Source of the DNA: a virus | Taxonomy: Duplodnaviria > Heunggongvirae > Uroviricota > Caudoviricetes | Length of the DNA: 17,794 bases | Direction: 5' to 3' (one strand) | Virus record (IMG/VR): IMGVR_UViG_2671180275_000001 | Shown here: positions 12-17,794 of the stretch, piece by piece | Position numbering within the stretch: the stretch's first letter is position 1 | Layout of the letters: each line of letters starts with the position of its first letter | Notes under the pieces: model-generated | What the model was told of the DNA's origin: nothing | What the model saw: the letters and a program-made list of their open reading frames with translations, nothing else | Database searches by the model: none | Translations under genes and position numbers: made by a program

Positions 12-248
12 TTACTTGACCACTACAGTCCACTGAAATGCACGGACGCCACCGTGCCGTTCCAGAAAGGCTTTTAAAGATGGGTGTTCACATTTACGAA
101 CACGTATCGTCACGCTGTAAGTCGACAACTGGTTATTCAGTCCCGCCGCACGACGCTGTTCATAACCATCGCCCAGCTTCACTGTCACCACTTTCGGCTC
201 TGATACCACATTCATATCCGGGCGCACTTTCCAGTGAAACGTCTCCAT
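12..248 (-). CDS. M: minor tail protein, lambda gpM-like (78 aa; shorter than lambda M)
   Basis: Translation METFHWKVRPDMNVVSEPKVVTVKLGDGYEQRRAAGLNNQLSTYSVTIRVRK...FLERHGG is collinear with lambda M (MKTFRWKVKPGMDVASVP...GDGYSQRAPAGLNANLKTYSVTL...FLEEHGG). ATG at 248-246 overlaps the TAA stop of the upstream tape measure gene. Stop at 12-14. Confidence 0.8.
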   Translation of the reverse strand: METFHWKVRPDMNVVSEPKVVTVKLGDGYEQRRAAGLNNQLSTYSVTIRVRKCEHPSLKAFLERHGGVRAFQWTVVVK

Positions 249-3313: not shown

Positions 3314-3635
3314 AACGCACACCTCCGGAAATACCTTCCCCAAGATGCATCAGTTCTTCGTCCGTTCGCTCCGGTATCCCGTTCTCTTCCGGTAAAAGGC
3401 TGAAATCAGCCACCGCAGCATCACTGCTGCCGGACACCATTCTCACGATCAATGCCTTCAGCGAGGCAAACTGCGCATCCATCCACACATCACTGAAGCT
3501 CTGCATCCGGAAATAATCGCCCCACTCACCAAGCTCAGTGGCCGACATTTCCGACAGCATCCGCCGCCAGTCTGCCCGCCGGAACTCCCGGGCAAGCCGC
3601 ATGACAAACTGCATTTCCCGCGTCAGGACTTTTCC
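3285..3635 (-). CDS. T: tail assembly chaperone, T-frame part of a G-T fusion made by programmed -1 frameshift (lambda gpT-like)
   Basis: ORF in the -1 frame relative to G, open upstream through the 3-prime end of G with no stop; position between G and H as in lambda. The standalone ATG at 3614 is probably not the functional start. Confidence 0.65.
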   Translation of the reverse strand, partial: GKVLTREMQFVMRLAREFRRADWRRMLSEMSATELGEWGDYFRMQSFSDVWMDAQFASLKALIVRMVSGSSDAAVADFSLLPEENGIPERTDEELMHLGEGISGGVRYGPDSQPGH

Positions 3636-4009
3636 GGCGTCAGCGCCTCATGCTCATCATCCACGGCATTATCAATGGCCCCCATACCGCTCAGCGACAG
3701 AACCATCTCCGCCCCCGCACCCAGGGCATCATACGACCATGTTGTAATAACGGATGCGCAAAGCGTCTCTACATCCTTAGACTGATCCGCATTCCACAGT
3801 GAGCGGGAAACCAGCCAGGCATTGATATCCATCCCCATCCGCAGAAAAGCAATCTGTCGTTCAGCCTCCGGCAGTTCTCCCTCCCCGGCATCAAACTTTG
3901 CCGTTCGCTGCTGAACAAACGTCAGATATTCAATTCTCTGCAGCCCGGACAGCTCACTGAGCACCACGGACTGTTTTTCATAATTAAACGTGTCCTGTTT
4001 CAGAAACAT
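3623..4009 (-). CDS. G: tail assembly chaperone, lambda gpG-like
   Basis: MFLKQDTFNYEKQSVVLSELSGLQRIEYL resembles lambda G N-terminus MFLKTESFEHNGVTVTLSELSALQRIEHL. GGAG lies 6 nt upstream of the ATG at 4009; the track ORF starts at an upstream TTG. Confidence 0.8.
   Translation of the reverse strand: MFLKQDTFNYEKQSVVLSELSGLQRIEYLTFVQQRTAKFDAGEGELPEAERQIAFLRMGMDINAWLVSRSLWNADQSKDVETLCASVITTWSYDALGAGAEMVLSLSGMGAIDNAVDDEHEALTPEKS
3629..3635 (-). other. candidate -1 ribosomal frameshift (slippery) site GGAAAAG at the end of G
   Basis: Minus-strand sequence ...ACG CCG GAA AAG TCC TGA in the G frame. Slipping back 1 nt at G-GAA-AAG puts tRNA-Lys on AAA and continues in the T frame (..GKVLTREMQFVMRL). 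Lambda uses G-GGA-AAG at the equivalent position. Confidence 0.5.
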
Positions 4010-4025
4010 CATGTTCTCCACCTGC

Positions 4026-4049
4026 AAAAAAGCCCCGCATAACCGGGGC
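4026..4049 (-). terminator. intrinsic terminator-like hairpin between V and G
   Basis: Minus strand reads GCCCCG-GTTATG-CGGGGC followed by TTTTTT, 20-45 nt downstream of the V stop codon. Confidence 0.5.
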
Positions 4050-4069
4050 AAATGATGAGTATCGTCCTG

Positions 4070-4813
4070 TTAACCTGCTGCGCTGACAGTCACCGCAGTC
4101 ACAGCCACAAAATTCCCGTCAGCGGTCATGCCCACAATGCTGACACTGCCCTGCTTCACGCCTTTTACCGTGGCCACAAGTCCGTTCAGGGTAACCGTGG
4201 CAGTCTGTGGATCTGACGAATGCACACTGATCGCTTTGTCACTGGCTCCGTCAGGTTTTACTGTAAAGGTCAGCGTGGTGGTTGCTCCCACTTTTACACT
4301 GGCAGACGCCGGTGATACTGTCAGCCCGGTAACGCTCACGGTTTCAGTGCCTTCCTCTGCCAGATACGGACGCCCCACACCGCTGATTTTCACAGTGCGG
4401 GTCATCACGTCTTTTGAGGCAATGGTTTTACCCAGTGAGCTCAGCCAGCCACGGAAAACATCAACAGTGCCGTTGGGATATTTGATACGAAACGCGCAGA
4501 CTTCACCGGAGTCGAACAACTGAACCAGTTTTTTCTGCCCGCTGTCACCCGGACGCCAGGCCAACGTCGCCGAAGTATCACCAACGGATTTCTGCCCCTG
4601 GGTTGTCGTTTTCCAGTCTGCATCTTCATCATCGAGATAAGTGTCATCTTCTGCATCAGCGGTCATTTCGCCAGGTTGCAGATCCTTCACCATCGCAAGA
4701 CGCAGCCAGTCAGTGTCCGACAAAGGGTTCGCAAACGCATCGCCGTTGCCGGTATACATCCAGAACGTCGTCCCCGCACCTTTCGTCTTTGCCAGTGGAT
4801 TTGGTGTGGTCAT
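4070..4813 (-). CDS. V: major tail protein, lambda gpV-like, with C-terminal Ig-like (Big_2-type) domain
   Basis: MTTPNPLAKTKGAGTTFWMYTGNGDAFANPLSDTDW...FRGWLSSLGK is collinear with lambda V ([36 protein letters not shown]...FRGWVSSIGK). C-terminal TVSPASASVKVGATTTLTFTVKP block is Ig-like. AAGGAGGT lies 5 nt upstream of the ATG at 4813. Confidence 0.92.
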   Translation of the reverse strand: MTTPNPLAKTKGAGTTFWMYTGNGDAFANPLSDTDWLRLAMVKDLQPGEMTADAEDDTYLDDEDADWKTTTQGQKSVGDTSATLAWRPGDSGQKKLVQLFDSGEVCAFRIKYPNGTVDVFRGWLSSLGKTIASKDVMTRTVKISGVGRPYLAEEGTETVSVTGLTVSPASASVKVGATTTLTFTVKPDGASDKAISVHSSDPQTATVTLNGLVATVKGVKQGSVSIVGMTADGNFVAVTAVTVSAAG

Positions 4814-4823
4814 TACCACCTCC

Positions 4824-5225
4824 TTAATTCGTGTACGTGATCTGGTACGTGATTTCCGCCATCGCCCAGGTGGCCATCTCATTATCACGTTGATAGTTAA
4901 AACCGAGTGGGATCAGGGTGTCGATGAGTCCGGAAAGTGCCGGTATATCATTCAGGGCAGGGAAAATGGTGCTCTCCATCCACATATCCAGCTCTGAATC
5001 CGGTGCCTGTGCCCGGATGAAGACGGCAATATGCAGAACAGCCTGCCAGTCATCTTCATCCGTCATTTTTCCGGTGTACTGAGCATCACTCAGCCACACC
5101 GCCACGGCAGGCAGTTCCTGCGCATCAATAAATGCCGGAAGCCCGTCAAAAAACGTGGCGCTGTCTCCACACTGTTCCCGAAGGCGTGCCAGTACGGCCT
5201 GGCGGATTTGTGTATGCCGGTTCAT
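4824..5225 (-). CDS. U: tail terminator protein, lambda gpU-like
   Basis: MNRHTQIRQAVLARL...ATFFDGLPAFIDAQELPAVAVWL...DSELDMWMES...DIPALSGLI matches lambda U. ATG at 5225 overlaps the Z stop in an ATGA arrangement. Confidence 0.85.
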   Translation of the reverse strand: MNRHTQIRQAVLARLREQCGDSATFFDGLPAFIDAQELPAVAVWLSDAQYTGKMTDEDDWQAVLHIAVFIRAQAPDSELDMWMESTIFPALNDIPALSGLIDTLIPLGFNYQRDNEMATWAMAEITYQITYTN

Positions 5226-5800
5226 CGGGTCAGCCATAACCTCAGTTGTTGTTTCAGTGCATACCCCAGCTGTTTCGGCATTTCCGCAGCAATGATGTGG
5301 TCGCGGGCATCTTCAAATGCCTGTGTCAGCGGTCCGGACAGCGGGATTTTCACCACATCAATGGGGTAACGATTTTTGCCATCAATACGCCGCATCACAT
5401 GCCAGCGACCATTCGCCAGTTGCTGAATAAACGCATCCCGGAAAAGATATTTACCCACCTTCAGCACACTGCCACGGTACTGCAGTTTTCCACCACGCCG
5501 GGCCAGTCTGACCCGGGCTGTCCCCAGCTTAATGGCGGGCAGATTGCCCCGGTTAACGCGGATCCTGGCCGTCATTTTTCCTGACGGACTGGCTTTAAAC
5601 ACCCGGACACGCTGACGTACCAGTTTCAGGGGGATCCCTTTCACCTGGTTATCTCCCGCAACGGTATTCCCGGCAACCTGCCGGGTGGCAACCGAGACCG
5701 CTTTCTGTGCCACACGGTTTATCGCCCATGCGCTGGCCTGTGGCACCATACGGGTATCAAGGCTGTTCAGATTGCGGATGGCATTCTCAAGCCCCTTCAT
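5222..5800 (-). CDS. Z: tail completion protein, lambda gpZ-like
   Basis: MKGLENAIRNL...NRGNLPAIKLGTARV...LKVGKYLFRDAFIQQLANGRWHVMRR...YPIDVVKIPLS matches lambda Z (192 aa). AGAGGTG precedes the ATG. Confidence 0.85.
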   Translation of the reverse strand: MKGLENAIRNLNSLDTRMVPQASAWAINRVAQKAVSVATRQVAGNTVAGDNQVKGIPLKLVRQRVRVFKASPSGKMTARIRVNRGNLPAIKLGTARVRLARRGGKLQYRGSVLKVGKYLFRDAFIQQLANGRWHVMRRIDGKNRYPIDVVKIPLSGPLTQAFEDARDHIIAAEMPKQLGYALKQQLRLWLTR

Positions 5801-5811
5801 CCCACACCTCT

Positions 5812-6087
5812 TTACTCAATAAAGATCATTGGCTTACCGTTAAAACGTTCATGCCGTGTGACCGTCCATTGTTGTCCGTCATAAACAACGCGATCCCCGC
5901 GCCGTGGGCGGTATCCCGAAGAAAACACCACCAGAGAGACCGCAGGTCCGGACAGAGCATTCAGCTCTGCCAGTGTTTCGCCCGGGATCACAGCCATATC
6001 GACATCATTAATCGAGGCTGTCTTTCCCATCTTTCTGACCGTGATCGCATCCATACGCGCTGCCAGCCGGGAAAAGGGATCAGACAT
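5812..6087 (-). CDS. FII: head-tail joining protein, lambda gpFII-like
   Basis: 91-aa ORF between the head genes and Z. C-terminal RRGDRVVYDGQQWTV resembles the lambda FII RRGDTLTIGEENFWV region. Start overlaps the stop of the upstream gene. Confidence 0.65.
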   Translation of the reverse strand: MSDPFSRLAARMDAITVRKMGKTASINDVDMAVIPGETLAELNALSGPAVSLVVFSSGYRPRRGDRVVYDGQQWTVTRHERFNGKPMIFIE

Positions 6088-6403
6088 TGAGTTTTACCGG
6101 CACTTCTTCTGCACTGGTTCCGGCATCTGCCCAGACAACCCCGACCAGCGGATCAGAGCCGCTGTTAGTCAGCTGAACTTTTCCGGACTTCAGATAAACC
6201 TTCTTACCCGTTTTCATGTCATCCGTTTTCAGTTTAGGCAGGATAAACACACCTTCGGTCATGCCGTCGCCTGTTTCACCCTGTGGAATATCGGTCAGCG
6301 CCACCGCAAAAACATCACCCACCTGCACCAGATCTCCGCTGCTGATGGCTGCACTGGCAACAATCGCCACCGTTTTTCCTTCTTCTACAAAATTCTTTGC
6401 CAT
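6080..6403 (-). CDS. small head protein of unknown role following the capsid gene (possible decoration or head-closure protein)
   Basis: 107-aa beta-rich ORF from internal ATG (MAKNFVEEGKTVAIVA...) with GGAG about 7 nt upstream. Sits directly after the capsid gene and its terminator. Function assigned from position only. Confidence 0.55.
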   Translation of the reverse strand: MAKNFVEEGKTVAIVASAAISSGDLVQVGDVFAVALTDIPQGETGDGMTEGVFILPKLKTDDMKTGKKVYLKSGKVQLTNSGSDPLVGVVWADAGTSAEEVPVKLNV

Positions 6404-6446
6404 AACTGTCTCCGCACAGCCCCGTTCAGAGGCTGATTTCAGGTAC

Positions 6447-6470
6447 AAAAAAAGCCCTTACGGGCCATCA
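6447..6470 (-). terminator. intrinsic terminator-like hairpin after the major capsid gene
   Basis: Minus strand GGCCC-GTAA-GGGCT followed by T7, about 20 nt after the capsid stop and just upstream of the next gene start. Confidence 0.5.
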
Positions 6471-6489
6471 GAGTTGTTGTCTGCGACGT

Positions 6490-8448
6490 TTACGCCGTAC
6501 ATTTCACCAGACCGCGGTGATCAACTGGCGCGACACCGGCGTCAATACGCACTTTCGTTGTCACGCCATCCACACTGAAGCCCTCCATCTGATCAATATA
6601 TGGCGTATCCACACCGTTGAGATAAGCCACTTCAATCGTATCGGAGCCTTTGGACGCAGCCAGGTAGAAGGTGGTCTGGCTGTTATCATCAAGACGAGGC
6701 TCTGCAATAACGGTCGCAAAATCTTTCACCGGGTTAATAATACCTGCGTTAATGTCAGCCCCCTTGACACTTGAGGAGCGAATGACCTGGTTAGCAACAG
6801 ACTCCATCGCCGTCGGTACCAGTACGAACGCAGGACGAATATTCAGATGACGCTCCCCCTCTTTCTGAACGCGCATCAACTGGCGGGCTTTATCCAGCGA
6901 TGCCACGTCCATTGCAGCGCTCTCCAGTACGTTTGCATGTTTCGCTTTATCGAACAGACTTACATTATCTGTGGAGATTTTCGGGTTAGACGTCAGAATG
7001 GCATAAACCAGATCGGCAATGGTGGATTTCGCCGCACGGCCCAGCTTCATCGGGACATCGGTCAGCATATTCAGATCATCATTGATAATGGCCTGACGGG
7101 TGATACTGAACAGCTCGCCATAGGTCGCCAGTGCAATAGTGGCCTGTTTATCTCCGGTGGTGACGTATTTATATTCCGCCCCTTCACGCACCTGACGCAG
7201 AGCACTGAAGCCCCCCATACCCACACGATGGGCAATTTTAAAATCAGACAACTGACCTTTCCGCGTCCACTGTTCATAGGTTTCAGGAGCATCTTCCCAG
7301 CCCTGCAGAATGGCTTTGTTCGCAACATCCAGCAGAATATTACCGAAGTCAGACGTACTGTGTGTGAACGCCGCACCGACCATCTGCATCGGGTTATAAC
7401 TGGAAACCCCAATACCCCGTTCAGTCAGTGACATACGGGCATATTCACGCAGGGTCATCCCGTTGTAGACATTATCACGTTCGGTTTTTTCAAATCCGGC
7501 ACGCGCCATCAGCGCCTGGCGGATCCCGTCCCCCACAAAATTACCGTTACCGGCATAAATATGAGCCGGGGTATTTTTATTGGATGGCGTGGACTCGCGC
7601 CCCATCTCGTTCAACAGCTTTTCGCGGGCCTGCTCCAGCGAACATTCAGGATCGGCAAGACACTGAGCCTGCAGAGTCTGATAACGCCCGCCAAACATGG
7701 CAAACAGATCATTAATACCGTTTACACGCGCTTTTTGCTCTGCCAGTACCTGCGCACGGATACTGTTTTCATCCACCACGGGTGCTGCTGCCTGCACTGG
7801 CGTCCGGGAGGCTGCAGGTTCATCATCCTGTACGCGTGGAGCACTGTTGCGTGGCGGAGTAATCATGTTTCGAATGGATTCCGGCATCTTTTTAAATTCC
7901 TCTGTACGTTTTGACTGAATACATGCCATTGCCTTAACGGCTGGCGTTACCTGATCAGCAAATCCATGTGCCAGACATTCGGCACCGGACATCCAGGTCT
8001 CATCCGCCAGCATGGCAGCAATTTCATCGGTGGTTTTCCCGGTTTTCTGTGCATAAGCGGGTAACAGAACCGCCTCAACTTTATCGAGCAGGTCGGCATA
8101 GGTGCGCATGTCCTCCGCATCACCGCCCGTAAAGCCAAATGGTTTATGAATCATCATGAAAGTGTTTTCCGGCATAATGACCGGGTTTCCCACCATCGCA
8201 ATGACCGACGCCATTGACGCCGCCACACCGTCGACATAAACGGTAATGGACGCACCATGTGTTTTCAGCGCATTAAAAATGGCGATGCCTTCAAAGACAT
8301 CGCCACCCGGTGAATTAATATGGAGATTAATGTGGGTGATATCGCCCAGTGCATTCAGATCACTGATAAACTGCTTCGCTGTAACACCCCAGAAACCAAT
8401 CTCGTCATAAATATAAATATCCGCGTCACTCTGGTGACCAGCCTGCAT
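6490..8448 (-). CDS. fused prohead protease (ClpP-like) / major capsid protein (HK97 fold), 652 aa
   Basis: N-terminus has ClpP-type motifs (IYDEIG, SPGGD, GVAASMAS, MMIHKPFG); C-terminal half has HK97-type capsid blocks (PEGAEYKY, FSITRQAIINDDL, TDTIEVAYLNG, KVRIDAGVA). Start set to the first ATG after the portal stop (MQAGHQSD...); the 739-aa track ORF would overlap the portal by about 250 nt. Confidence 0.9.
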   Translation of the reverse strand: MQAGHQSDADIYIYDEIGFWGVTAKQFISDLNALGDITHINLHINSPGGDVFEGIAIFNALKTHGASITVYVDGVAASMASVIAMVGNPVIMPENTFMMIHKPFGFTGGDAEDMRTYADLLDKVEAVLLPAYAQKTGKTTDEIAAMLADETWMSGAECLAHGFADQVTPAVKAMACIQSKRTEEFKKMPESIRNMITPPRNSAPRVQDDEPAASRTPVQAAAPVVDENSIRAQVLAEQKARVNGINDLFAMFGGRYQTLQAQCLADPECSLEQAREKLLNEMGRESTPSNKNTPAHIYAGNGNFVGDGIRQALMARAGFEKTERDNVYNGMTLREYARMSLTERGIGVSSYNPMQMVGAAFTHSTSDFGNILLDVANKAILQGWEDAPETYEQWTRKGQLSDFKIAHRVGMGGFSALRQVREGAEYKYVTTGDKQATIALATYGELFSITRQAIINDDLNMLTDVPMKLGRAAKSTIADLVYAILTSNPKISTDNVSLFDKAKHANVLESAAMDVASLDKARQLMRVQKEGERHLNIRPAFVLVPTAMESVANQVIRSSSVKGADINAGIINPVKDFATVIAEPRLDDNSQTTFYLAASKGSDTIEVAYLNGVDTPYIDQMEGFSVDGVTTKVRIDAGVAPVDHRGLVKCTA

Positions 8449-8461
8449 CCTGAACCAGGAA

Positions 8462-9970
8462 TTATTCTTCGGACTGGTCGTCGGTGTGCTGCGGCTCCTG
8501 TCGTTTCGTTGCGGCACTGCTGCCTCCTTTATCACTGGCCGGATCGGTATCAAATACCAGATCCAGCTTGCGGTTTTCATCAATTTCGGCCTTGCGCCGA
8601 CGTTTGACATCATCCGGATTACGACCACCAGCACGTACCCAGTCTGATTCTGTCGCCGCTCCACCACGAATCTGGATTTTCCAGGCCTCAGCCTCCTTAA
8701 CAGGGTCAATCCACGGCATCACTGGTCCGGAATACACCGCGGTATACAGTGAAGAACGGTCAAGATCGCGGGGTAGCCTGATAACACCGGATGCCACAGC
8801 CTGTTTCAGCCAGGCACGATACATCGGGCGGGTGACGGCACCAATAAACCAGTCCTGCAGGATCAGGTAGCCATCAGTAGACTCAACCAGTTCCTGACGC
8901 TGGGCGCTGTAAGTGCCGTTATAGTTGCGTGCCGTACTGGAAAAACTCAGACGACTGCCCGCCGCCACGGCACGCAACTGACCATTACGAAAAGTTTCAA
9001 GGTTAGGATTGGGACGATCCGACTTCACCATTCCGATTTCTTCGCCGGGTTTCAGATCGTCGTAAATAATGCCTGGCTGAATGGTAAGCTCGCGTTCATT
9101 CTCCTTGCTGTCATTACCATCCGTTTCATAGCTCTGTCCGTCGCCTTTCCGGATGTACATCCCCAGAGCAGCGGCGATCCTTGCTGCAGTCAGCTCAGAA
9201 TCTTCATACTCTTTCAGGGCGCTGAGGCGGATCAGCACACCGGACAATAAAGACGTCCCGCGCATCTGGTGCAGACGTCGAACAAATTTAAGATGCAGCA
9301 TTCGCTCTGCATCCACTTCTTTGGTTTCCATCTGCCGTCCGGATACAGGACGACTTTTATACACCAGATATTTTTCGGGACGCCCCCAGTCATCAACAAA
9401 CACGCCCTGATTCAGCCTGTTGCTCTCATCACTGGTCATGGGAATAAAGTCCGGCTCGAGCGCCTCCAGCCAGAAATGAACACCGGCAGAAGGCGTCAGG
9501 CTGTTTATGCGCCCGGAAACCATCTGGGCAAACACCTCACCATCGCGCAGCCAGGTACGCAGCATCAGACGTTCCAGCATCGGACGGGTAAACTGCCCGG
9601 TGACTTCCGGACTGACAGACCATTCACTCCATCGGGTACGTATCTCCGCTGCCAGGTCACGGGCAATGGCACCATTGCGTAATACCGGATGTGGCTCGAC
9701 AATAATCCCGTTTTTCCCCACCACCCGTTCTTCCAGCTTGTCAAATACACCAATGACCAGATCGTGGTTGTTATCAAGGTAACGGGCCTGCTCACGTAAC
9801 GACACGGCCCCGTACTGGCTTAACTGGTCGGCAGTTCGGTTCTCCCGTCGGGCTTTGTGTGTCCGCGTCGTTTTTACGGCCTCATAAGCTTGGATCACCG
9901 CTCGGGAACGCAGCCTTGCCGCTTTCCATCCTGGTGAAAAAACGCCAATCACATCATCAAGAATTGCCAT
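8462..9970 (-). CDS. B: portal protein, lambda gpB-like
   Basis: 502-aa ORF from MAILDDVIGVFSPGW with GAGG 5 nt upstream. Position between the W-like gene and the protease/capsid gene; length and overall composition resemble lambda B (533 aa). ATG overlaps the W-like stop (TGATG). Confidence 0.88.
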   Translation of the reverse strand: MAILDDVIGVFSPGWKAARLRSRAVIQAYEAVKTTRTHKARRENRTADQLSQYGAVSLREQARYLDNNHDLVIGVFDKLEERVVGKNGIIVEPHPVLRNGAIARDLAAEIRTRWSEWSVSPEVTGQFTRPMLERLMLRTWLRDGEVFAQMVSGRINSLTPSAGVHFWLEALEPDFIPMTSDESNRLNQGVFVDDWGRPEKYLVYKSRPVSGRQMETKEVDAERMLHLKFVRRLHQMRGTSLLSGVLIRLSALKEYEDSELTAARIAAALGMYIRKGDGQSYETDGNDSKENERELTIQPGIIYDDLKPGEEIGMVKSDRPNPNLETFRNGQLRAVAAGSRLSFSSTARNYNGTYSAQRQELVESTDGYLILQDWFIGAVTRPMYRAWLKQAVASGVIRLPRDLDRSSLYTAVYSGPVMPWIDPVKEAEAWKIQIRGGAATESDWVRAGGRNPDDVKRRRKAEIDENRKLDLVFDTDPASDKGGSSAATKRQEPQHTDDQSEE

Positions 9971-10182
9971 CAGAACCTCGCCAGCCGGTACCCGGGATGC
10001 CCCCGTCGTCGTGTAATCAGAGCCGCAAGGCGGCGCTCCCACTCCTGCCGCCCCTGCCGGATCTCAGATAAGTTTTCCATGGTCATCTGCTGACCATTAA
10101 AAGTGACGGATTTTCCGTCCAGCACTGCCATTTCAGCTTCCGTATAACGCTGAATCATGGCTTCAATATCATTCTGATTCAT
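9970..10182 (-). CDS. W: head-tail joining protein, lambda gpW-like
   Basis: 70-aa ORF (MNQNDIEAMIQRYTEAEMAVLDGKSVTF...RRRGHPGY). Lambda W is about 68 aa and ends ...QRRRGPAGFYV. ATGA overlap with the terminase stop, as for lambda A-W. GGAGG lies 6 nt upstream. Confidence 0.6.
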   Translation of the reverse strand: MNQNDIEAMIQRYTEAEMAVLDGKSVTFNGQQMTMENLSEIRQGRQEWERRLAALITRRRGHPGYRLARF

Positions 10183-11291
10183 AACCATCCTCCGGAAGTC
10201 AGCCAGGGGTTAACATCGTCAGTTACTGTTTTCTTCCGTTTTTGTTTTTTAACAGGCGTGGATACCGGTTCCGGTGTGGGTGACGGTTCGGTACTGTCCG
10301 GGACACACTCCAGCCAGGTTTCCCGGCTCGCCCACTCCGGTGCATCCGGCCAGCGGATCTTTTCGTATCCATGCAGAATGACCAGAGCCTCGGCATACAC
10401 CATCAGGTCAAAAGCTTCGTTGGCACCGCGACCCGGCTTACTCCATTTCCCGTCACTGCTCCGCTCTTCATACGTCAGTTCGTCGTAAAACCAGCTCCCC
10501 AGCCAGTCAGGGAAATGCACATAGCCGGGACCTGGCGAGTCACGCCATAACGCGTTATTCACCCTGTCTTTCAGGGCATCCGTCTGAAGAAGCCAGAGCG
10601 GTACATCACCTGCGGCCTGCGCCCGTCGGCCCGTTCGTCCGGTGTTATCAGGGAATGTACGGGTGATCAGTTTTGCGCGCCGGATGCTGTCGCCCTTAAA
10701 CAGGTAAATACGTTTACCAAGGCCATCACGACGGCAACGACGCCAGAATTTATAGGCATTATCAGTGACCCCGTCTTCACCGCCGGAGTCCACCGCCATT
10801 GCCATCAGTCGCATTTGTTGAGAAGGATCGGAGGCCAGCGGCCAGCTTTTATGAAAAACATCCGTCAGCAGGACATCCCAGTCTTCCGGATAGCTGGCCG
10901 GATCAATTCGCTGGCTCTCCCCGTCGCTGTCACCGCGCAATGACTGCGTGATGTTGTAACGATCAATAATCCAGCGTTCGCCACGGCTGCCATAGCCCGT
11001 TACCTGAACCACAAAACGGCGATGACGTCCCGCCTGCACATCCACTGTCGCCACAAGGAAATTAACGCCATCCGGCACACTGCGGGAAGGAACTGGCTCT
11101 GCCCGCTGCTCAAGCAATTCACTTTTTCGTTGCTCCATGCTGGCGCGGGGAAGATAAGGTAATCCCCAGTCGGTATTGATAACCGTCTTGAGTGTCTCTT
11201 CACTTCCGGTTGTCTCGTATTCCTGTTCTGCAGTAAGCAGTTTGTAAACGAGTTGCGAGAGTGTCTGATAAGCAGCTGCCGGCCCCTCCAT
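10179..11291 (-). CDS. A: terminase large subunit, gpA family, C-terminal portion only (5-prime truncated; probable pseudogene)
   Basis: 370-aa ORF matching the C-terminal part of lambda gpA (LVATVDVQ vs LTAGIDSQ; AVDSGG vs WDTGG; NEAFDLMVYAEAL vs NEALDCFVYALAA). Frame is closed by a stop 11 codons upstream of the ATG; no SD; upstream DNA is AT-rich and non-coding. No Walker-A N-terminal domain. Confidence 0.8.
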   Translation of the reverse strand: MEGPAAAYQTLSQLVYKLLTAEQEYETTGSEETLKTVINTDWGLPYLPRASMEQRKSELLEQRAEPVPSRSVPDGVNFLVATVDVQAGRHRRFVVQVTGYGSRGERWIIDRYNITQSLRGDSDGESQRIDPASYPEDWDVLLTDVFHKSWPLASDPSQQMRLMAMAVDSGGEDGVTDNAYKFWRRCRRDGLGKRIYLFKGDSIRRAKLITRTFPDNTGRTGRRAQAAGDVPLWLLQTDALKDRVNNALWRDSPGPGYVHFPDWLGSWFYDELTYEERSSDGKWSKPGRGANEAFDLMVYAEALVILHGYEKIRWPDAPEWASRETWLECVPDSTEPSPTPEPVSTPVKKQKRKKTVTDDVNPWLTSGGWL

Positions 11292-11313
11292 CCAGGAAGA
11301 AGTAAATAAAAGG

Positions 11314-11345
11314 TAACTAAATGATTATAAATAGTTATTTAGTTA
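11314..11345. repeat. AT-rich inverted repeat TAACTAAAT-N14-ATTTAGTTA next to the terminase truncation point
   Basis: Perfect 9-bp arms at about 11314-11322 and 11337-11345, within 25 bp of the ATG at 11291. Confidence 0.4.
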
Positions 11346-11659
11346 TACTACCTCCTACATAGTCCAAGATTTAGTACCTGCTTAAACGATAAAAAAAGAA
11401 ACAAAAGCAGCAATATTAATTAAAAGCTGAATGATGATGGGGGTACGCTTGTGTCTGATTCCGGTAACGCGGTGGATTAATCCCAGTATTTCGGCTTCTG
11501 TCATTGTGCCCCCATCGCGCTGGTGAAGAAAACAAGCTCAGATTTTTTGTAAAGAATCTGTCACGCTAAAAGATGTCGAACAAAAAATAACCTTCTTCAT
11601 CATCTTTTTCACATCAAAATAATTAAAAACAATCACTTACGCACATGATGATGATGACG

Positions 11660-11760
11660 ATAAAATCAAAAAAATGCGCTTTTTTCCGCGCCGCCCGCCC
11701 CGTGTTCAGGCCCACCCCACCAGGAGGACCCGCAAAAAAGGCGGCTGGTGCCGCCTTGTT
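11660..11760 (-). repeat. conserved ~100-bp element, copy A (terminator plus conserved distal block)
   Basis: Aligns at roughly 85% identity with 14198-14299 (ATAAAATCAAAAAATGCGC...TTTTTCCGCGCC...CCGCCCCGTG...CAGGCC...ACCCCACCAGGAG...AAAAAAG + hairpin). Identity is by eye. Confidence 0.6.
11733..11756 (-). terminator. intrinsic terminator after the second protease/capsid gene
   Basis: Minus strand GGCGG-CACCAG-CCGCC followed by TTTTTT, starting 6 nt after the stop at 11762. Confidence 0.6.
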
Positions 11761-11761
11761 G

Positions 11762-13651
11762 TCATAGTGAATCTGTCCCGCCTGATTTGACCATACCGCG
11801 ATAATCCAGAGCTGCCACACCTGCATCAATACGGACTTTCCAGGCCACGCCGTCAACGATAAAACCTTCCTGCTGTTCAAGGTAAGGCTCGTCATTGCCA
11901 TCAAGATAAGCCACCTCGATTGTGTCAGTTCCCTGTGCGGAAAGCATGTACCATTGTTTTTCGCTGATATCATCAAGGCGGGGATCGACGATGATATCAA
12001 GTAGCTTGTGGTACGGGTTAAAGATCCCGCTGTTTTTATCAGCCCCGAAAGGTGCGGTTGAGTTAATCATCTGCAACGCGCGATCTTCCAGTGCTGCCGG
12101 AACTAAAAGGAATTTAGGCGCAATATTCAGCACTTCGCCATTTTTGTCCTTCTGTGTGCGCATCAGGTGACGTGCTGCACTAAGTCCCGATGTTGTCAGT
12201 CCTGCTTCAATCAGGTTGCTGTGTTTTTTGTCAAACAGCGTTATTCCGTCAGAAAGTTTTACGTTGCCTGTAAGCACCAGATTAACCAGATTTCCCACCG
12301 TTCTTGATGCTGCACGGCCCATAGCCATTGGCACCGTTGATAACTGATCAAGGTCATCATTGATTATCGCCTGGCGGGTAATGCTGAAAATATTCCCGTA
12401 AGTAGCCAGCGCGATGGGTTCACCGCGATCGCTGGTGGTGATGTATTTATATTCTGCCCCTTCCGGCACTTTGCTTAACGTAGAGAAACCATTCAGGCCA
12501 ACGCGGCGGGCTTCACGAAAGTTTGAAAGGGAACCTTTTTTCGTCCACTGGCGGAATGTTTCGCCGCTGTGCTCCCAGCCTGCAAGCACTGATTTTTCAG
12601 CGCCACCAGCAAGGATATCGGTAAAATCGCTGCTGCTGTGGTTGAATGCCGCGTTTACTATCTGCGAGCGTGTGCCGTAGCTGCCCGTGCTTATACCACG
12701 ATGGGTTAATGATGCCTGTGCCATATCGAAAAGACTCATCATGGCGTAAGGATTACCGCGTTCGGCCCGTTCGTGACCAAGACGCGCATTAAGCCCCTGA
12801 CGCATGGCATCGCCAGTTATATTGCCGTTATCCGTGTACGCGTAGTAAAGATTTGCGGGGGTGGTTTTGTTTGTTGGCGTTGATTCTTTACCCATAGCGA
12901 GTAAAAGGCGTTCGCGTGCATTCTCAACGCTACATTCTGAATCCGCAAGACAACTTATAGCCAGGTCGTTATATCTTCCGTTGAAGGTGCCAAACAATTC
13001 ACGGATTCCGTTAAGTCGTTCCTGTTCGCCACTGCCAGTTTTCTGGCTGATCATGCTTTTAATTTTTTCCGGCATATTTGAAAAATCTCCGATTCGTTTT
13101 GATTCAATTCGGGCCATTGCTGTAATCGCGGGTATAACCTCATCTGCGAAGCCGTTAGCCTTACACTCATTGCCATCCATCCAGGTTTCCGCCTCCATCA
13201 TGGCGGTGATTTCCTGTTTGCTCCTGCCCGTTCTTCCGGCGTAGGTTTCTGCCATCGTGTCGCCCAGCTTGTCCATCAGGTCAGCAAAGCGGCGAACGTC
13301 GCCCGACACTCCGGCAGTAACACCACGGGGGGTATGTATCATCATCATCGCGTTTTCAGGCATAACGATGTGATCGCCACACATGGCAATAAACGAGGCC
13401 ATAGAAGCCGCCATGCCCTCAATGTGTACAATTTTCTTTGCCGGATGATTTTTCAGGGCGTTATAGATAGCCAGCCCTTCAAAGATGTCGCCACCAGGTG
13501 AATGGATGCGAAGATGGATTTCAGACGCATTACCACACGCGTTGATCTCGTCAGTAAGTGCCGATGCTTTTACACCGTACCCGCCGATCTCGTCATAAAT
13601 GCGCACATAGACAACATCTGCCATAGCCTTAATGGAAAACCATGTTTTCAT
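11762..13651 (-). CDS. second fused ClpP-like protease / HK97-fold major capsid protein (629 aa), divergent paralogue of 6490..8448
   Basis: Same domain order and motifs (RIYDEIG, HSPGGD, GMAASMAS, MMMIHTPRG, PEGAEYKY, FSITRQAIINDDL, TDTIEVAYLDG, KVRIDAGVA). AGGAGA lies 6 nt upstream of the ATG at 13651, which overlaps the stop of the upstream small ORF (ATGA). Confidence 0.85.
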   Translation of the reverse strand: MKTWFSIKAMADVVYVRIYDEIGGYGVKASALTDEINACGNASEIHLRIHSPGGDIFEGLAIYNALKNHPAKKIVHIEGMAASMASFIAMCGDHIVMPENAMMMIHTPRGVTAGVSGDVRRFADLMDKLGDTMAETYAGRTGRSKQEITAMMEAETWMDGNECKANGFADEVIPAITAMARIESKRIGDFSNMPEKIKSMISQKTGSGEQERLNGIRELFGTFNGRYNDLAISCLADSECSVENARERLLLAMGKESTPTNKTTPANLYYAYTDNGNITGDAMRQGLNARLGHERAERGNPYAMMSLFDMAQASLTHRGISTGSYGTRSQIVNAAFNHSSSDFTDILAGGAEKSVLAGWEHSGETFRQWTKKGSLSNFREARRVGLNGFSTLSKVPEGAEYKYITTSDRGEPIALATYGNIFSITRQAIINDDLDQLSTVPMAMGRAASRTVGNLVNLVLTGNVKLSDGITLFDKKHSNLIEAGLTTSGLSAARHLMRTQKDKNGEVLNIAPKFLLVPAALEDRALQMINSTAPFGADKNSGIFNPYHKLLDIIVDPRLDDISEKQWYMLSAQGTDTIEVAYLDGNDEPYLEQQEGFIVDGVAWKVRIDAGVAALDYRGMVKSGGTDSL

Positions 13652-13842
13652 AGCCAGTCTCCTAACGTTGCCCTGTACCAGTATTCAACCGCGCTTCTCG
13701 CAATCTGCCCTTTCGTGGGTACTGGCATTCCAGGGTGATTACTTTTAATGAACTGCTGATAGCGTTCTATCTTTTCCATAGTTCCGGCGTCTATGTGTAC
13801 CGTGGCACTTTTATCCGGCTTTCTGGTGTTGTTCTCTGGCAT
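13648..13842 (-). CDS. small protein (64 aa) translationally coupled to the second capsid gene; possible ribbon-helix-helix fold
   Basis: Start at internal ATG (MPENNTRKPDKSATVHIDAGTMEKIERYQQFIK...GQIARSAVEYWYRATLGDWL) with GGAGG 7 nt upstream. Strand-helix-turn-helix pattern is a guess from residue periodicity. Confidence 0.45.
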   Translation of the reverse strand: MPENNTRKPDKSATVHIDAGTMEKIERYQQFIKSNHPGMPVPTKGQIARSAVEYWYRATLGDWL

Positions 13843-14033
13843 AAATCCGCCTCCGTTTTGATTAACGGGCATCATTATTGATCGACAAAAGTAATAGATA
13901 AATCATTTTCTACCTGAAAATCAGATTATGTTTTTTCTGATTATTCTCAGAGAGGCAAAGCCATTGACGCATTTTTGCTATTGAAGCAATATTAAGACTC
14001 GTCATCATGGCGATAAAAACTCCTTTGTCGTGT

Positions 14034-14074
14034 AAAAGCGCCTCCGGTAACAGCAATCGGGGGCGCTTTTTTTT
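14034..14074 (+). terminator. plus-strand intrinsic terminator-like hairpin in an intergenic region
   Basis: Plus strand GCGCCTCCG-GTAACAGCAAT-CGGGGGCGC (9-bp stem including one G-U pair) followed by T8. In the minus orientation only TTTT follows. Confidence 0.5.
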
Positions 14075-14197
14075 GCGCCTGTTTTTTTGTAAATGTTTTC
14101 GGGAACGTTCCAGTGATGAACAAAAAACAACCTGATTCGACACTAAAAATTTTTATTCCTCAATATATCAATAGCTTATAGTGGTGGTGATGGTGCC

Positions 14198-14299
14198 ATA
14201 AAAATCAAAAAATGCGCCTTTTTCCGCGCCCCTCCGCCCCGTGGACAGGCCACCCCCACCAGGAGTACCTACAAAAAAGCCGGATTTCTCCGGCTGTTG
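14198..14299 (-). repeat. conserved ~100-bp element, copy B (terminator plus conserved distal block)
   Basis: Second copy of the element at 11660-11760; directly 3-prime of the PerC-like gene. Confidence 0.6.
14272..14296 (-). terminator. intrinsic terminator after the PerC-like gene
   Basis: Minus strand AGCCGGA-GAAA-TCCGGCT followed by TTTTTT, starting 5 nt after the stop at 14301. Confidence 0.6.
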
Positions 14300-14300
14300 A

Positions 14301-14573
14301 TTAGCTGTCTGGGTAATTACGCCATATTTCATCGCTTACACCATCTATACCCATTTCAGCATAAGTGCGATCGACTACCTTTCTCAGGTCTCCGAAGTTA
14401 TCCGGCGGCTCCGGTGGCCTCTGTGCCTTCCTGGAACATTCCAGCCGTCGCATCGTAACCTGATGCCGTTCCTTGTCTGTCTCCACCAGCTGCATGACTT
14501 CACCCCATCGCGCCGCCGCCCTCCGGTAAAATCCTTTCGCCTCGAGTTCCTCCGCTATGCGGTCATGTATCAT
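14301..14573 (-). CDS. PerC-family-like small transcriptional regulator (90 aa)
   Basis: N-terminal IAEELEAKGFYRRAAARWGEVM matches the AExLExKG-(F/W)-RRAAxRW signature I associate with PerC/Pch proteins. ATG at 14573 with GGAGAG upstream. Confidence 0.5.
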   Translation of the reverse strand: MIHDRIAEELEAKGFYRRAAARWGEVMQLVETDKERHQVTMRRLECSRKAQRPPEPPDNFGDLRKVVDRTYAEMGIDGVSDEIWRNYPDS

Positions 14574-14748
14574 CGCCTGACTCTCCGGTTTTTACGTTGA
14601 TGGTTGTTACCTGTTCCGCTTCGGCAATCTCCCGTTCTGTCAACGTGGCAAAGTTTGCCGCCGCTGTGGTCATGAATGCGCTTATCAGTTCGGGATGCTC
14701 CTTCGCGTATCCTTCCCCAGCGTGGCGGTCTATTACCCTGATTGCCAC
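14563..14748 (-). CDS. small acidic hypothetical protein (61 aa); frame and start uncertain
   Basis: Protein-like composition (MAIRVIDRHAGEGYAKEHPELISAF...); GTG start without a clear SD. An overlapping 77-aa Arg-rich frame (14570..14803) ends in an ATGA overlap with the PerC-like start and could be the real gene instead. Confidence 0.3.
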   Translation of the reverse strand: MAIRVIDRHAGEGYAKEHPELISAFMTTAAANFATLTEREIAEAEQVTTINVKTGESGDDT

Positions 14749-14785
14749 CTTTAAGGCGTGCTCTGTCTCTGCGCATTTTGGTTAT

Positions 14786-14990
14786 CTCCTCACTCATGCT
14801 CACTTTTACACCTCACTTTTTAAAGCGTCTCGCTTCGTCTCACTTGATATTTTTTGATGCTTTATGTGTGTGTTTCATAAGGATTTTTTTACTCCTCACT
14901 TTTGAGCATGTATACAGGTGAGAAAGTGAGTAATCGTGTTAATATTTTGTAAAAACCTCACCATTACTCACTTTTGCTACTCACTTTTTA
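14786..14990. repeat. iteron-like direct repeats (CTCACTTTT) flanking an AT-rich spacer; candidate replication origin
   Basis: At least six direct copies of (C)TCACTTTT plus one inverted copy (GTGAGAAAGTGAG) around an AT-rich stretch at about 14846-14892, immediately 3-prime of the helicase-like gene. Confidence 0.5.
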
Positions 14991-16388
14991 CAGTGGTCCT
15001 ACATCATCACCATCAATGTAAATCACGGCGTCTTTTTCCAGTTTGGCTAACCATCGCCGCATATTTTTCACGTCATACCCAAGCCGTTTCATGTCATCAC
15101 GTAACAGCGGGATCGTGCACTTGTCGCCGTTCTGTGTGCGTGAACGGATGCACCCCCATAGTGCGGTATGGTTTTCCGTCTTGTTGCCTGCCTCCTCGAT
15201 GCGTTCCAGTTCAACGGGAGGGCGCGGCTTATCCACCACCACCAGCGACGTGATTAACTCCCCGTCAGCGTCGGTAAACAGCTCCACCACGCGTAAGTCA
15301 TATGCGGCTTCTTTGAGTTCCTCCGCGTCCTTCATTTTGGTGCATGAGATAACCAGCGCTTCGCTTCCTGCGTCCTCCCTGCGTATCCGGTATTCAGCAT
15401 CCAGCGAAGCACGAAATGCACTGGAACCGCGCGCGCCTTTCGTCTCATCCTTGCCGGAATGGTGAACCACCAGCACCGTGGCCCCTGTGCGTCGTTTCAG
15501 TTCGTCACAACCACGGATAAACGCCCCCATATCACGGGAATCATTTTCATCATTCCCACCAAAGCAACGCGCCAGCGTATCCAGAATAATCATGCGTACA
15601 GGTTTACCCGTTTCCCGCTCCACCTGACGGGCAGCGATAACCATTTCATCAACATCAAGCGGGGCAGCCGGAAAGATGGGGCGGTTTACCAGATACAGAT
15701 TTTTCACCTGCTCATCGTGCACAACCTCCCAGGCTTTTACACGACGCGGAACACCTATACCGCCTTCACCAACCACATAGAGAACCGCACCATGTGCAAC
15801 CCTGCGGCCTCCCCACTGGCGACCAGTGGCAACATGGCACGCCCACGATCCGGCAAGGAATGATTTATAGGACCCGCTAGCCCCGTATATGCTGCACAGC
15901 GATACCGCCGGAATAATCCCCTTAACCACGTAATCAAGTTGTGTGTCGTATCCGGCAGATCCCACGCTCATTGGTAGCGTGGTTTTTCGCTGGTGGTGTT
16001 TTTCTTCCCCTGGCTTTTTCCCCCGCTCCCGTTCCAGATATTCGCGCCAGTTCTCCCGCTTCTGGCTGTGCATCCCTTCGGGGTAATAATTCGCATCAGT
16101 TACACCCGCCGCCGCCAGCTTGTGCGCAATGGCATTAATATTTGATGGCCTGATGTGGCCTGCCTTGTACAGCCGGACACAATAGCGCCCCTCGTCGATG
16201 ATTCTCAGGTCTGCCAGTTCATCCAGTTGATCATCAGCCAGCACAACGGGAGGCACATTATCGCCAGCCAGTCGCCCGTCCTGTTCCTGCCACTGTTTCG
16301 CATGTGCCCAGGCATCACTACCCGCAAAAATAATGACTTCGGTCATCTTGTCGTAAGGCTGTTTTTTTAAGTTCGGTGCGCTTTTCAT
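14988..16388 (-). CDS. replication protein: RepA/DnaB-like RecA-fold P-loop helicase (AAA_25-like) with an N-terminal domain of unclear type
   Basis: Walker A YGASGSYKSF and Walker B MIILDTLARCFGGNDEND, with LVVHHSGKDETKGARGSSAF downstream, as in RepA-type hexameric helicases. ATGA overlap with the upstream 99-aa ORF. Confidence 0.75.
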   Translation of the reverse strand: MKSAPNLKKQPYDKMTEVIIFAGSDAWAHAKQWQEQDGRLAGDNVPPVVLADDQLDELADLRIIDEGRYCVRLYKAGHIRPSNINAIAHKLAAAGVTDANYYPEGMHSQKRENWREYLERERGKKPGEEKHHQRKTTLPMSVGSAGYDTQLDYVVKGIIPAVSLCSIYGASGSYKSFLAGSWACHVATGRQWGGRRVAHGAVLYVVGEGGIGVPRRVKAWEVVHDEQVKNLYLVNRPIFPAAPLDVDEMVIAARQVERETGKPVRMIILDTLARCFGGNDENDSRDMGAFIRGCDELKRRTGATVLVVHHSGKDETKGARGSSAFRASLDAEYRIRREDAGSEALVISCTKMKDAEELKEAAYDLRVVELFTDADGELITSLVVVDKPRPPVELERIEEAGNKTENHTALWGCIRSRTQNGDKCTIPLLRDDMKRLGYDVKNMRRWLAKLEKDAVIYIDGDDVGPL

Positions 16389-16684
16389 TTCTTGCCCCTG
16401 AATCCGTTAATCATGGTTTTCAGCTTCTGGATGTTTGCCCGTGCCCTGGCGTTGCTGGTGGGCACGTTATGCGGCGCGGTCTGTACCAGAGAAAAATCAC
16501 GCCGGAACTGATAAACAGGCATCACGCAATCATATTCGTAACCTTCACGGCGGTAAGTTACGCACCGTCCCGCCACGCCCTTAATCATTACCGTACCGCC
16601 GTACTGGTCGCGGTAAATATCACCGCGCGTAAATTTAGGGTGAGTGTTGCCACTGGCAGTTAAGCCAGAATATTTAAGTTTCAT
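16385..16684 (-). CDS. hypothetical protein (99 aa)
   Basis: ATG start; stop overlaps the helicase start (ATGA). No recognised motif. Confidence 0.5.
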   Translation of the reverse strand: MKLKYSGLTASGNTHPKFTRGDIYRDQYGGTVMIKGVAGRCVTYRREGYEYDCVMPVYQFRRDFSLVQTAPHNVPTSNARARANIQKLKTMINGFRGKK

Positions 16685-16689
16685 TATTT

Positions 16690-16923
16690 TTATTCTCCGG
16701 TGTGCTGTTCTTTATATCTGTCGTGCAATAGATCTATTTCTTGCAGTTCCATTATTACATGCTCAAGAATCGTTATTAATGCCGTGGCAATTCTTGATTT
16801 TTGTTTGTCGCGTTCATTGTCGCCAAGTGTTTCAAGCCATATGCGCAATATTTCCATCATGCTTTCACTGTGAGAAAGTGCAAGAAATGCGCGGTCTATT
16901 GTTTCAAGATAAATATCACGCAT
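16690..16923 (-). CDS. hypothetical helical protein (77 aa)
   Basis: ATG one nt after the stop of the upstream ORF (TAAtATG); GGGGA upstream. No recognised motif. Confidence 0.45.
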   Translation of the reverse strand: MRDIYLETIDRAFLALSHSESMMEILRIWLETLGDNERDKQKSRIATALITILEHVIMELQEIDLLHDRYKEQHTGE

Positions 16924-16924
16924 A

Positions 16925-17359
16925 TTAATCCCCGTCCGTTGTTTTTCTTAAAACAGCTTCTGTCACGAAATCGGCATAGTTAGCGGCAATATCAAGAATA
17001 TTTAGCCCTGTATCTCTGTGCTCATCAGTGCAAAGAAAGAAAAAAGCCACCCGCATAATTTCAGATATTAACGAAAGCGCATCAACCGCATCATCAGGAA
17101 CGCCGGAAAATTCTTGTTTCAGGGAATTAAAACGATCATCACGCATAACCCCCCCATTTTCACAATCAGCAACAAGAATATTTTTAGCGTCATTCAGTGA
17201 CCGCGTTGCGGTGTATCGGATACATTCCAGGGCGAATAGTGTGTATTCTTCCCGTCCTTCCTTTTGTGCAAGCTCTGCTGTGCATTCAATATCAATAAGC
17301 GCGTGCATCAGCGTAGTGAGCGCGGCGGCTGCTGCGTCCGGTGTGGTTTTATTGCACAT
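16925..17359 (-). CDS. hypothetical protein (144 aa)
   Basis: Start at internal ATG (MCNKTTPDAAAAALTTLMH...) with GGAGGT 6 nt upstream. No recognised motif. Confidence 0.5.
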   Translation of the reverse strand: MCNKTTPDAAAAALTTLMHALIDIECTAELAQKEGREEYTLFALECIRYTATRSLNDAKNILVADCENGGVMRDDRFNSLKQEFSGVPDDAVDALSLISEIMRVAFFFLCTDEHRDTGLNILDIAANYADFVTEAVLRKTTDGD

Positions 17360-17540
17360 GGCACACCTCCTGACGAATACGGGCGGCGAATACAGCAACA
17401 CAACCGGACGGGCAACGGCTACGCGCTTCGCGTTCCGTCCAGGCGGTTACGTGGATGATTTGAGATTCTGACGCGCCAAAGATGATAAAGCGCCAGATAA
17501 ATGCGGTTTGAGAATGTACAAGGGTAGGGATAGTAGCCAT
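17349..17540 (-). CDS. hypothetical small protein (63 aa) with a Cys-x3-Cys ... Cys-His pattern
   Basis: Internal ATG (MATIPTLVHSQTAFIWRF...RCPSGCVAVFAARIRQEVCHVQ) with GGAGG 7 nt upstream; first gene after the terminator-like hairpin at about 17702-17725. Confidence 0.4.
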   Translation of the reverse strand: MATIPTLVHSQTAFIWRFIIFGASESQIIHVTAWTEREARSRCPSGCVAVFAARIRQEVCHVQ

Positions 17541-17701
17541 GTTGGCAGCCTCCTCAGTGTGGTTAAGATAACCGCCACGCAAAAGGCTAATTTCGCTGGT
17601 GGCGGACTGTACAGGGTTAGCCTTACCGGACACTGAAGAAACCGGCGCGGATTGCTCCGCCCCCGTACAGCCCACCATTGATAAGGTGTGACTATGCGGC
17701 A

Positions 17702-17725
17702 CAAAAAAACACGCGGGGCGCGTGC
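17702..17725 (-). terminator. intrinsic terminator-like hairpin closing a transcription unit that lies beyond the window end
   Basis: Minus strand CACGCG-CCC-CGCGTG followed by T7. Confidence 0.4.
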
Positions 17726-17794
17726 TGTGCGCTTCAGTTGTTTTCAGGAGGCTAATCCCGACACCCGTTTTATGAGGTGCGCGGGAATCATAGC

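Follow-up and report, generated by a model that had tools for sequence, protein, structure and literature searches.

Why should a G-rich sequence with some resemblance to the lambda cos region occur twice in the same orientation, once on either side of a capsid gene, in phage DNA whose resident terminase gene is incomplete? The DNA concerned is a 17,794-nt stretch of a Caudoviricetes record (IMGVR_UViG_2671180275_000001), called here the window. From sequence comparisons, we conclude that the repeated element is very probably a pair of cos sites carried by an EcCICFT073-family satellite, or phage-inducible chromosomal island (PICI), which is inserted in terL of a lambdoid (mEp460-like) prophage.

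A repeated element with the layout of a cos site

Searching the window for the 9-mer ACGGGGCGG gives two exact matches, which lie on the minus strand as the preliminary description states, at 14242-14234 (copy B) and 11703-11695 (copy A); 0.18 occurrences are expected by chance, and two or more were seen in 3 of 200 shuffles. The core sequences on the minus strand are ACGGGGCGGGCGGCGCGGAAAAAAGCGC in copy A and ACGGGGCGGAGGGGCGCGGAAAAAGGCGC in copy B, and the strings quoted earlier for both copies proved right on re-reading the sequence. In both, the 9-mer is followed by CGCGG and an A-run (14242-14224 in copy B, 11703-11686 in copy A), also as described, although the distance of about 6 nt given for CGCGG was slightly generous: copy A has 4 nt in between, copy B 5 nt, and lambda 6 nt. 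The lambda sequence quoted there agrees with the reference: NC_001416 ends in ...GGGTCCTTTCCGGTGATCCGACAGGTTACG (...ACGGGTCCTTTCCGGTGATCCGACAGGTTACG) and starts with GGGCGGCGACCTCGCGGGTTTTCGC. The cores lie in a direct repeat of 99 nt (11646-11744 and 14185-14283) whose units are 74% identical and 2539 nt apart, and the likeness between the copies extends beyond it to about 190 nt (alignment A1).

On the minus strand, each copy has a layout of the lambda type. A terminator hairpin is followed by the cosQ position and the G-rich cosN core, and an A/T-rich cosB of about 150 nt completes the element. For the cosQ, cosN, and R sites of lambda we used the definitions in Fig. S5 of PMC6092414. The cosN-like core of both copies reads ACG/GGGCGG.../CGCGG followed by AAAAA (slashes bound the predicted overhang), with a lambda-like left half-site and the flanking CGCGG both present.

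In copy A, the hairpin GGCGGC-ACCA-GCCGCC and its T-run (11738-11757, minus strand; RNA fold -15.1 kcal/mol, z -3.4; inverted repeat I4) follow the capsid gene and stand directly 5' of the copy. The heptamer GGGTCCT at 11725-11731 (minus strand) is the same as the cosQ heptamer of lambda and lies 21 nt upstream of the ACG, compared with 20 nt in lambda. A search for heptamer and 9-mer at such a distance (GGGTCCT-N18-23-ACGGGGCGG) found one match in the window and none in 200 shuffles. The cosN-like core, ACG/GGGCGGGCGG/CGCGG (11686-11703, minus strand), is the same as that of phage 1720a-02, and the cosB-like segment at 11537-11685 (minus strand; alignment A1) is of the VT1-Sakai type, containing the inverted repeats CGTCATCATCATC / GATGATGAAGA, 42-45 nt apart, and also TTATTTTTTGTTCGAC (inverted repeats I2, I3, and I9).

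In copy B, the Rho-independent terminator hairpin AGCCGGAGAAATCCGGCT with its T-run (14278-14295, minus strand; terminator scan; RNA fold -12.6 kcal/mol, z -4.8) comes after the PerC gene and directly 5' of the copy. The cosQ position holds the degenerate heptamer AGGTACT (14264-14270, minus strand) where lambda and copy A have GGGTCCT. Sequence comparison places the cosN-like core, ACG/GGGCGGAGGGG/CGCGG, at 14224-14242 (minus strand), and the cosB-like segment that follows at 14105-14223 (minus strand; CACCATCACCACCAC ... AGTGTCGA ... TTGTTTTTTGTTC; alignment A1) is of the 1720a-02/CP-1639 type.

The predicted 5' overhangs are GGGCGGGCGG for copy A (11700-11691, 10 nt) and GGGCGGAGGGG for copy B (14239-14229, 11 nt), with nick positions placed by analogy with lambda and with the ends of the cdtI and Tritos sequence entries. 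ACG and CGCGG are separated by 10 nt in copy A, by 11 nt in copy B, and by 12 nt in lambda; across the alleles surveyed this spacer ranges from 9 to 12 nt, which makes the precise nick positions and the length of the overhangs uncertain. Such variation among otherwise alike cos alleles implies differing cohesive-end lengths or nick positions. A spacer difference of 3 nt was also seen between mEp460 (648-671 of locus L004) and its derivative mEp460_4F5 (1-20 of locus L005).

A strong terminator hairpin right before each copy, together with the presence of copy B on the upstream side of the capsid operon, at a natural place for a promoter, would also suit a transcriptional control element (a terminator plus a promoter or antitermination region) that had been duplicated around the capsid operon and whose cos likeness was incidental. 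We regard this as highly improbable, given that neither copy has a sigma-70-like promoter on the minus strand, that the RNA fold of the core is ordinary (z -0.7 and 0.0) and has no Rfam match, and that in phages the same sequence stands at the cos position and not at an operon start. A structured RNA was rejected as well: the core, folded on both strands, gave no signal, and Rfam searches with permissive thresholds found none in either copy.

Kinship with phage cos regions and an indirect link to lambda

Searched against phage genomes with blastn, copy A matches VT1-Sakai and other Stx phages best (85% over 201 nt, E 1e-55) and copy B matches 1720a-02/CP-1639 best (88% over 128 nt, E 2e-37), with a further match of copy B to mEp460 (E 5e-14). 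In a shuffle test, both copies scored z 24-67 against the cos regions of cdtI, mEp460, VT1-Sakai, and 1720a-02. Within the cosB part, copy A is 83% identical to VT1-Sakai and copy B 89% identical to 1720a-02, compared with a background of 70-78% for such A/T-rich DNA. The cos regions of VT1-Sakai/Stx, 1720a-02/CP-1639, mEp460/phi458, and cdtI/Tritos are direct homologues of the element, at 85-88% identity. In every phage checked (lambdoid phages with gpA-type terminases, among them VT1-Sakai, 1720a-02, mEp460, phi458, and cdtI), the matching segment has the lysis genes (Rz or endopeptidase) on one side and terS on the other, and this interval is the canonical cos position of lambdoid phages. 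These homologies, and the cosQ heptamer in copy A, sustain the earlier proposal that cos-like signals stand beside the module's own capsid gene. Next to no credence is left for the reading that the likeness is a chance one between G-rich sequences, or that the copies are att or ori repeats of the island. Taken alone, the 9-mer match to lambda does fall within the shuffle range, as chance would have it, but the E-values of the phage matches, down to 1e-55, and the shuffle z-scores refute chance.

The relationship to lambda itself is of another order. Local alignment of the copies to the whole circularised lambda genome gave best matches away from cos (z 0.5-1.2), and alignment to the 180-nt cos junctions of lambda, P2, HK97, and EcCICFT073 gave z 0.7-3.2, within the range of shuffles, P2 cos yielding no alignment (z 1.5-3.2); the lambda R3, R2, and R1 sequences are absent from both copies. 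The preliminary description was apt in calling the likeness to lambda limited, the direct alignment being not significant (z 0.7-1.2), and the comparison that it proposed with the cos sites of lambda, HK97, and P2 returned no significant match to any of them (z 0.7-3.2). The cos regions of cdtI, VT1-Sakai, and 1720a-02 do align to lambda cosQ-cosN, at z 8-11 and in 0 of 1000 shuffles. The lambda link is transitive, because only these intermediates align to lambda, and the comparisons first suggested would look negative because the intermediate phages are absent from them. Shared with lambda are the order and approximate spacing of GGGTCCT (in copy A), ACG/GGGCGG, CGCGG, and a following A/T-rich region with inverted repeats, as well as the gpA terminase family, which the surrounding prophage encodes (GpA_nuclease); different are the right half of cosN, the entire cosB, and the predicted overhang, 10-11 nt here and 12 nt in lambda.

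On these comparisons, the G-rich core is the putative cosN of a cos site of the lambda supergroup. In GenBank, the cdtI and Tritos entries begin at GGGCGGGAGCGT, and the cdtI entry ends in ...CCACG; the start of these records coincides with the position equivalent to the lambda nick, ACG/GGGCGG. A literature search returned no end mapping, and no packaging data, for the cdtI, mEp460, Sakai, or 1720a cos subtype, and for that reason we infer the cos identity of these phage regions.

An EcCICFT073-family island inside a prophage terminase gene

The window joins two elements. Positions 28-11295 are 99% identical to 1506-12773 of mEp460 and carry tail and head genes, the portal gene, and the 3' part of terL, a C-terminal gpA nuclease fragment at 10179-11291 (minus strand; Pfam GpA_nuclease 3.4e-83). 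The match ends at window position 11295, which is mEp460 position 1506, within terL, and the junction lies at about 11296/11297, after approximately codon 329 of mEp460 terL, with both elements on the minus strand. From 11297 to 17794 (minus strand), tblastn, Rfam, Pfam, and annotated relatives identify part of a PICI of the family of EcCICFT073, the prototype Gram-negative PICI. The N-terminal side of terL, with terS, and the integrase fall beyond the end of the window; in all four relatives that show this side (W24, O111:H21 15A, O121 2014C-4423, and O45:H2 FWSEC0003) an N-terminal terL fragment and terS lie just past the island integrase. The resident terminase had been described as truncated, and it is true that the C-terminal fragment stands alone in the window, but the four relatives indicate a gene interrupted by site-specific insertion of an island and not a simple truncation. 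In four E. coli lineages besides that of the window (L001, L016, L017, and L018), the terL insertion is found in prophages with at least two terS/cos types, and strain 88-3493 has a related island at tRNA-Pro. A search for an att core by longest common substring gave only a chance 10-mer.

On the minus strand, the island genes run in the order Icd-like gene, C4/isrK RNAs, DUF4222, RepA-type helicase, ori iterons, PerC, copy B, 75-aa ORF, capsid gene, copy A. According to tblastn, Pfam, PHROGs, and Rfam, the regulatory and replication genes follow the order of a PICI, are unidirectional, and include no terS; relative to EcCICFT073, proteins including DUF4222, PerC, and those of several small ORFs are 74-91% identical in amino acids (tblastn). 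The full island is about 10 kb in relatives, and only there are its integrase and HTH genes seen. A C4 antisense RNA (17595-17682, minus strand; 75.4 bits) and an isrK RNA (17704-17780, minus strand; 61.8 bits), both above the Rfam gathering score, are the P4/P1-type immunity RNA module of the island, a module reported for PICIs (PMC10111431). Just 3' of the RepA-type helicase gene are two 49-nt direct repeats rich in CTCACTTTT (14777-14825 and 14945-14993), which are probably the iterons of the island replication origin. An ori role for the cos-like copies would thus compete with iteron-like repeats located elsewhere (14777-14993), and an att role is at odds with the internal position of both copies whether the island is in terL or at tRNA-Pro; both roles were rejected on these grounds.

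The gene between the two copies (11762-13651, minus strand) encodes a fusion of a ClpP-like prohead protease and a major capsid protein (Pfam CLP_protease 2.7e-33, Phage_capsid_4 6.2e-55) that is 51% identical to the corresponding fusion of the resident prophage (6490-8709, minus strand). Compared with the resident protein, it lacks about 34 aa of the linker/scaffold region, a shortening that could change capsid assembly or size.

Several smaller features surround the two copies. The 75-aa ORF between copy B and the capsid gene (13648-13875, minus strand) belongs to phrog_4934 (PHROGs E 6e-49), is annotated as hypothetical in relatives, and had no match in a Pfam search; judged by eye, it has the look of a ribbon-helix-helix DNA-binding protein, and EcCICFT073 has a different ORF, of 68 aa, at this place. 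Right after the cosB of copy B, on the plus strand, there are a promoter-like sequence (TTGACG-18-AATATT, 13964-13993), a terminator-like hairpin (14061-14080), and a weak match to ctRNA_p42d (14034-14076; 24.3 bits, below the threshold of 50); taken together, the features at 13964-14080 suggest that the capsid operon leader is faced by a short antisense RNA. The phrog_1561 ORF that follows copy A (11382-11504, minus strand) is reduced to 40 aa and has a hydrophobic tail of unrelated sequence, the version after the cos site in EcCICFT073 and other islands being 93 aa, and the island end near this ORF is about 440 nt shorter in the window than in strain W24.

The insertion in terL is, as far as its sequence tells, the published configuration of helper-embedded PICIs (HE-PICIs), which occupy sites in lambda gene A such as A:Terminase_1:245/246 (PMC10111431). 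Like the published elements, the island combines C4/isrK RNAs with Bro and replication zones and a late zone that has captured a capsid gene, and a cos-like segment common to an HE-PICI and its helper has been noted (PMC10111431). Two points differ: that publication has no description of a cos pair with two cosB types around a capsid gene, and in 3 of 5 embedded relatives the cosB types of the island are unlike the cdtI-type cos of the surrounding prophage.

Two putative cosB types in a conserved arrangement

The two copies differ in cosB, and so do the TerS proteins of the phages that they resemble. Between VT1-Sakai (3239-3715 of locus L010) and 1720a-02 (3198-3674 of locus L009), TerS identity is 95% over the C-terminal 88 aa and drops to 54% over the N-terminal 70 aa. 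The N-terminal region of lambda Nu1 is its DNA-binding domain. The N-terminal divergence of TerS fits two cosB specificities, in what would be a classic cosB/TerS mosaic.

Both cos sites are found in every island whose contig covers both positions (6 genome and 24 IMG/VR loci), always in direct orientation and 2517-2540 nt apart, with the 1720a-type cosB upstream and the Sakai-type downstream. Because probes taken from the window served to pick these loci, and because the islands are close relatives of one another (92-98% identical), conservation of the two sites is weak evidence of selection. At the cosQ position of copy B, 5 of the 6 genome-derived islands (the window and 4 of 5 others) have AGGTACT, and GGGTCCT is found in O111:H21 15A and in 4 IMG/VR loci fetched with the copy A probe; the tally leaves out those IMG/VR loci that the copy B probe retrieved, since they contain AGGTACT by construction. 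Lacking a consensus cosQ heptamer, copy B may be a site at which termination is not supported.

The surrounding prophage has a cos of the cdtI type in W24, O111 15A, and O121 and of the 1720a type in O45:H2; in an unannotated locus (L027), a Sakai-type site about 8.7 kb from the island pair was taken as the prophage's own. In 3 of the 5 embedded cases, then, the prophage has a third, cdtI-type cosB, and since the cos type differs in these cases the embedding prophage is not necessarily the packaging helper. We also scanned IMG/VR for packaged island contigs ending at cos and found cos to be internal in 24 of 24 loci, nearly all of which appear, judging by their contig names, to be prophage predictions from isolate genomes; the loci are uninformative on DNA ends.

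The copies might alternatively be non-functional relics, one or both of them scraps of cos DNA brought in with the captured protease-capsid gene, with packaging through one site or none. Late zones of PICIs have been proposed to capture late genes of helpers (PMC10111431), the copies resemble two phage lineages as separate acquisitions would, the cosQ heptamer of copy B is degenerate, and in EcCICFT073 one of two cos sites, cos2, is dispensable and its deletion even raises transfer (PMC6092414). Against this, an intact cosN core and similarity over the full length of cosB are seen at both sites in every island examined, the order cos-capsid-cos matches that of no phage (phages have cos-terS-terL-portal-capsid), and the island has neither terS nor a pac alternative, so that a mobile island would need a minimum of one working cos. 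We consider relics unlikely, and return to two cos sites as the preferred reading.

Comparison with cos-packaged elements

The nearest counterpart is EcCICFT073, in which deletion and plasmid-transfer experiments demonstrated two functional cos sites (PMC6092414). Transfer by lambda and phi80 requires its cos1, and removal of cos2 raises transfer (PMC6092414); its cosB is unlike that of the helper and is read by a complex of Rpp and TerS (PMC6739421). We located the two sites at 7555 (plus strand) and 8311 (minus strand) of its locus, L012, in inverted orientation about 750 nt apart. The 144-aa ORF between them (L012 7659-8093) is probably c1503/rppA, and a tblastn search of the window with this ORF found no match at E <= 1e-3. 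The window island agrees with EcCICFT073 in family and gene order, in the absence of terS, in having two cos sites in the late zone beside a satellite capsid gene, and in the terminator hairpin (GCCGGAGAAATCCGGC) that precedes copy B here and abuts a cos site there. The sites of EcCICFT073 differ in being lambda-type (cosN GGGCGGCGACCT) and inverted and in flanking c1503/rppA, whereas those of the window island are of the Sakai and 1720a types, are co-oriented 2539 nt apart, flank the ClpP-protease/capsid fusion gene, and each have a phage-like cosB, with no Rpp homologue found. The EcCICFT073 cosB beside rppA (L012 7555-7640, plus strand) contains GACACCACCACCAC, similar to the CACCATCACCACCAC block of copy B.

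The genes that follow the sites also set the island apart from phages: in phages the site precedes terS, and in the island copy B precedes the 75-aa ORF and the capsid gene, and copy A the small phrog_1561 ORF. The satellites P4 and SaPIbov5, which lack their own terminase and are packaged via a copy of the helper's cos, follow the strategy proposed for the island, but their sequences and the terminase families of their helpers are unrelated to those considered here.

A packaging model

If the two copies are cos sites, packaging might proceed as follows. Upon induction of a helper, the island would excise and replicate from its own origin into concatemers. A helper TerS of the Nu1/DUF1441 type would bind cosB, and a gpA-type helper TerL would nick cosN to leave 5' cohesive ends of about 10-12 nt; packaging would then run toward decreasing window coordinates and stop at a downstream cos that carries cosQ. 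Unmodified helper TerS would most likely recognise cosB directly, because the island has no terS or Rpp homologue and because both cosB are phage-like and of two types. The two sites would probably admit helpers of two TerS DNA-binding specificities.

These steps lead to a more specific and tentative proposal, which we regard as possible but would not favor over its failure: that the pair is a dual-specificity packaging device serving two helper lineages that differ in their TerS DNA-binding domains, with no need for an Rpp-like adaptor. Copy A would be a complete cos (cosQ, cosN, and a Sakai-type cosB), and copy B would be competent for initiation (cosN and a 1720a/mEp460-type cosB) with a weakened cosQ. 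Two co-oriented cos sites 2.5 kb apart could in principle lead to abortive short packaging, and under this proposal the asymmetry in cosQ would block early termination 2.5 kb after a start at copy B.

Distribution and implications

Among 5426 complete E. coli genomes, copy A-type sequence is present in 549, about 340 of them with matches at 80-90% identity that probably represent cos sites of Stx phages of the O157 type. For copy B-type sequence the count is 143 of the same genomes, and the entire segment from copy B through the capsid gene to copy A is present in 82.

That PICIs have cos sites, that an island may have two, and that PICIs can be embedded in helpers is already published, and current concepts are unchanged by our results. 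New here is this cos pair itself: co-oriented, placed around a protease-capsid gene, and of two cosB types. The analysis accounts for a prominent repeat in a common element associated with STEC and points to the likely packaging signals of a subfamily of PICIs found inside prophage terminase genes (in O157, O121, O111, O45, and other strains). If the two sites match two TerS specificities, they would represent a simple way to a wider helper range without an adaptor protein, and this reading, if true, predicts which phages, Stx-type or other lambdoid ones, would mobilise the island.
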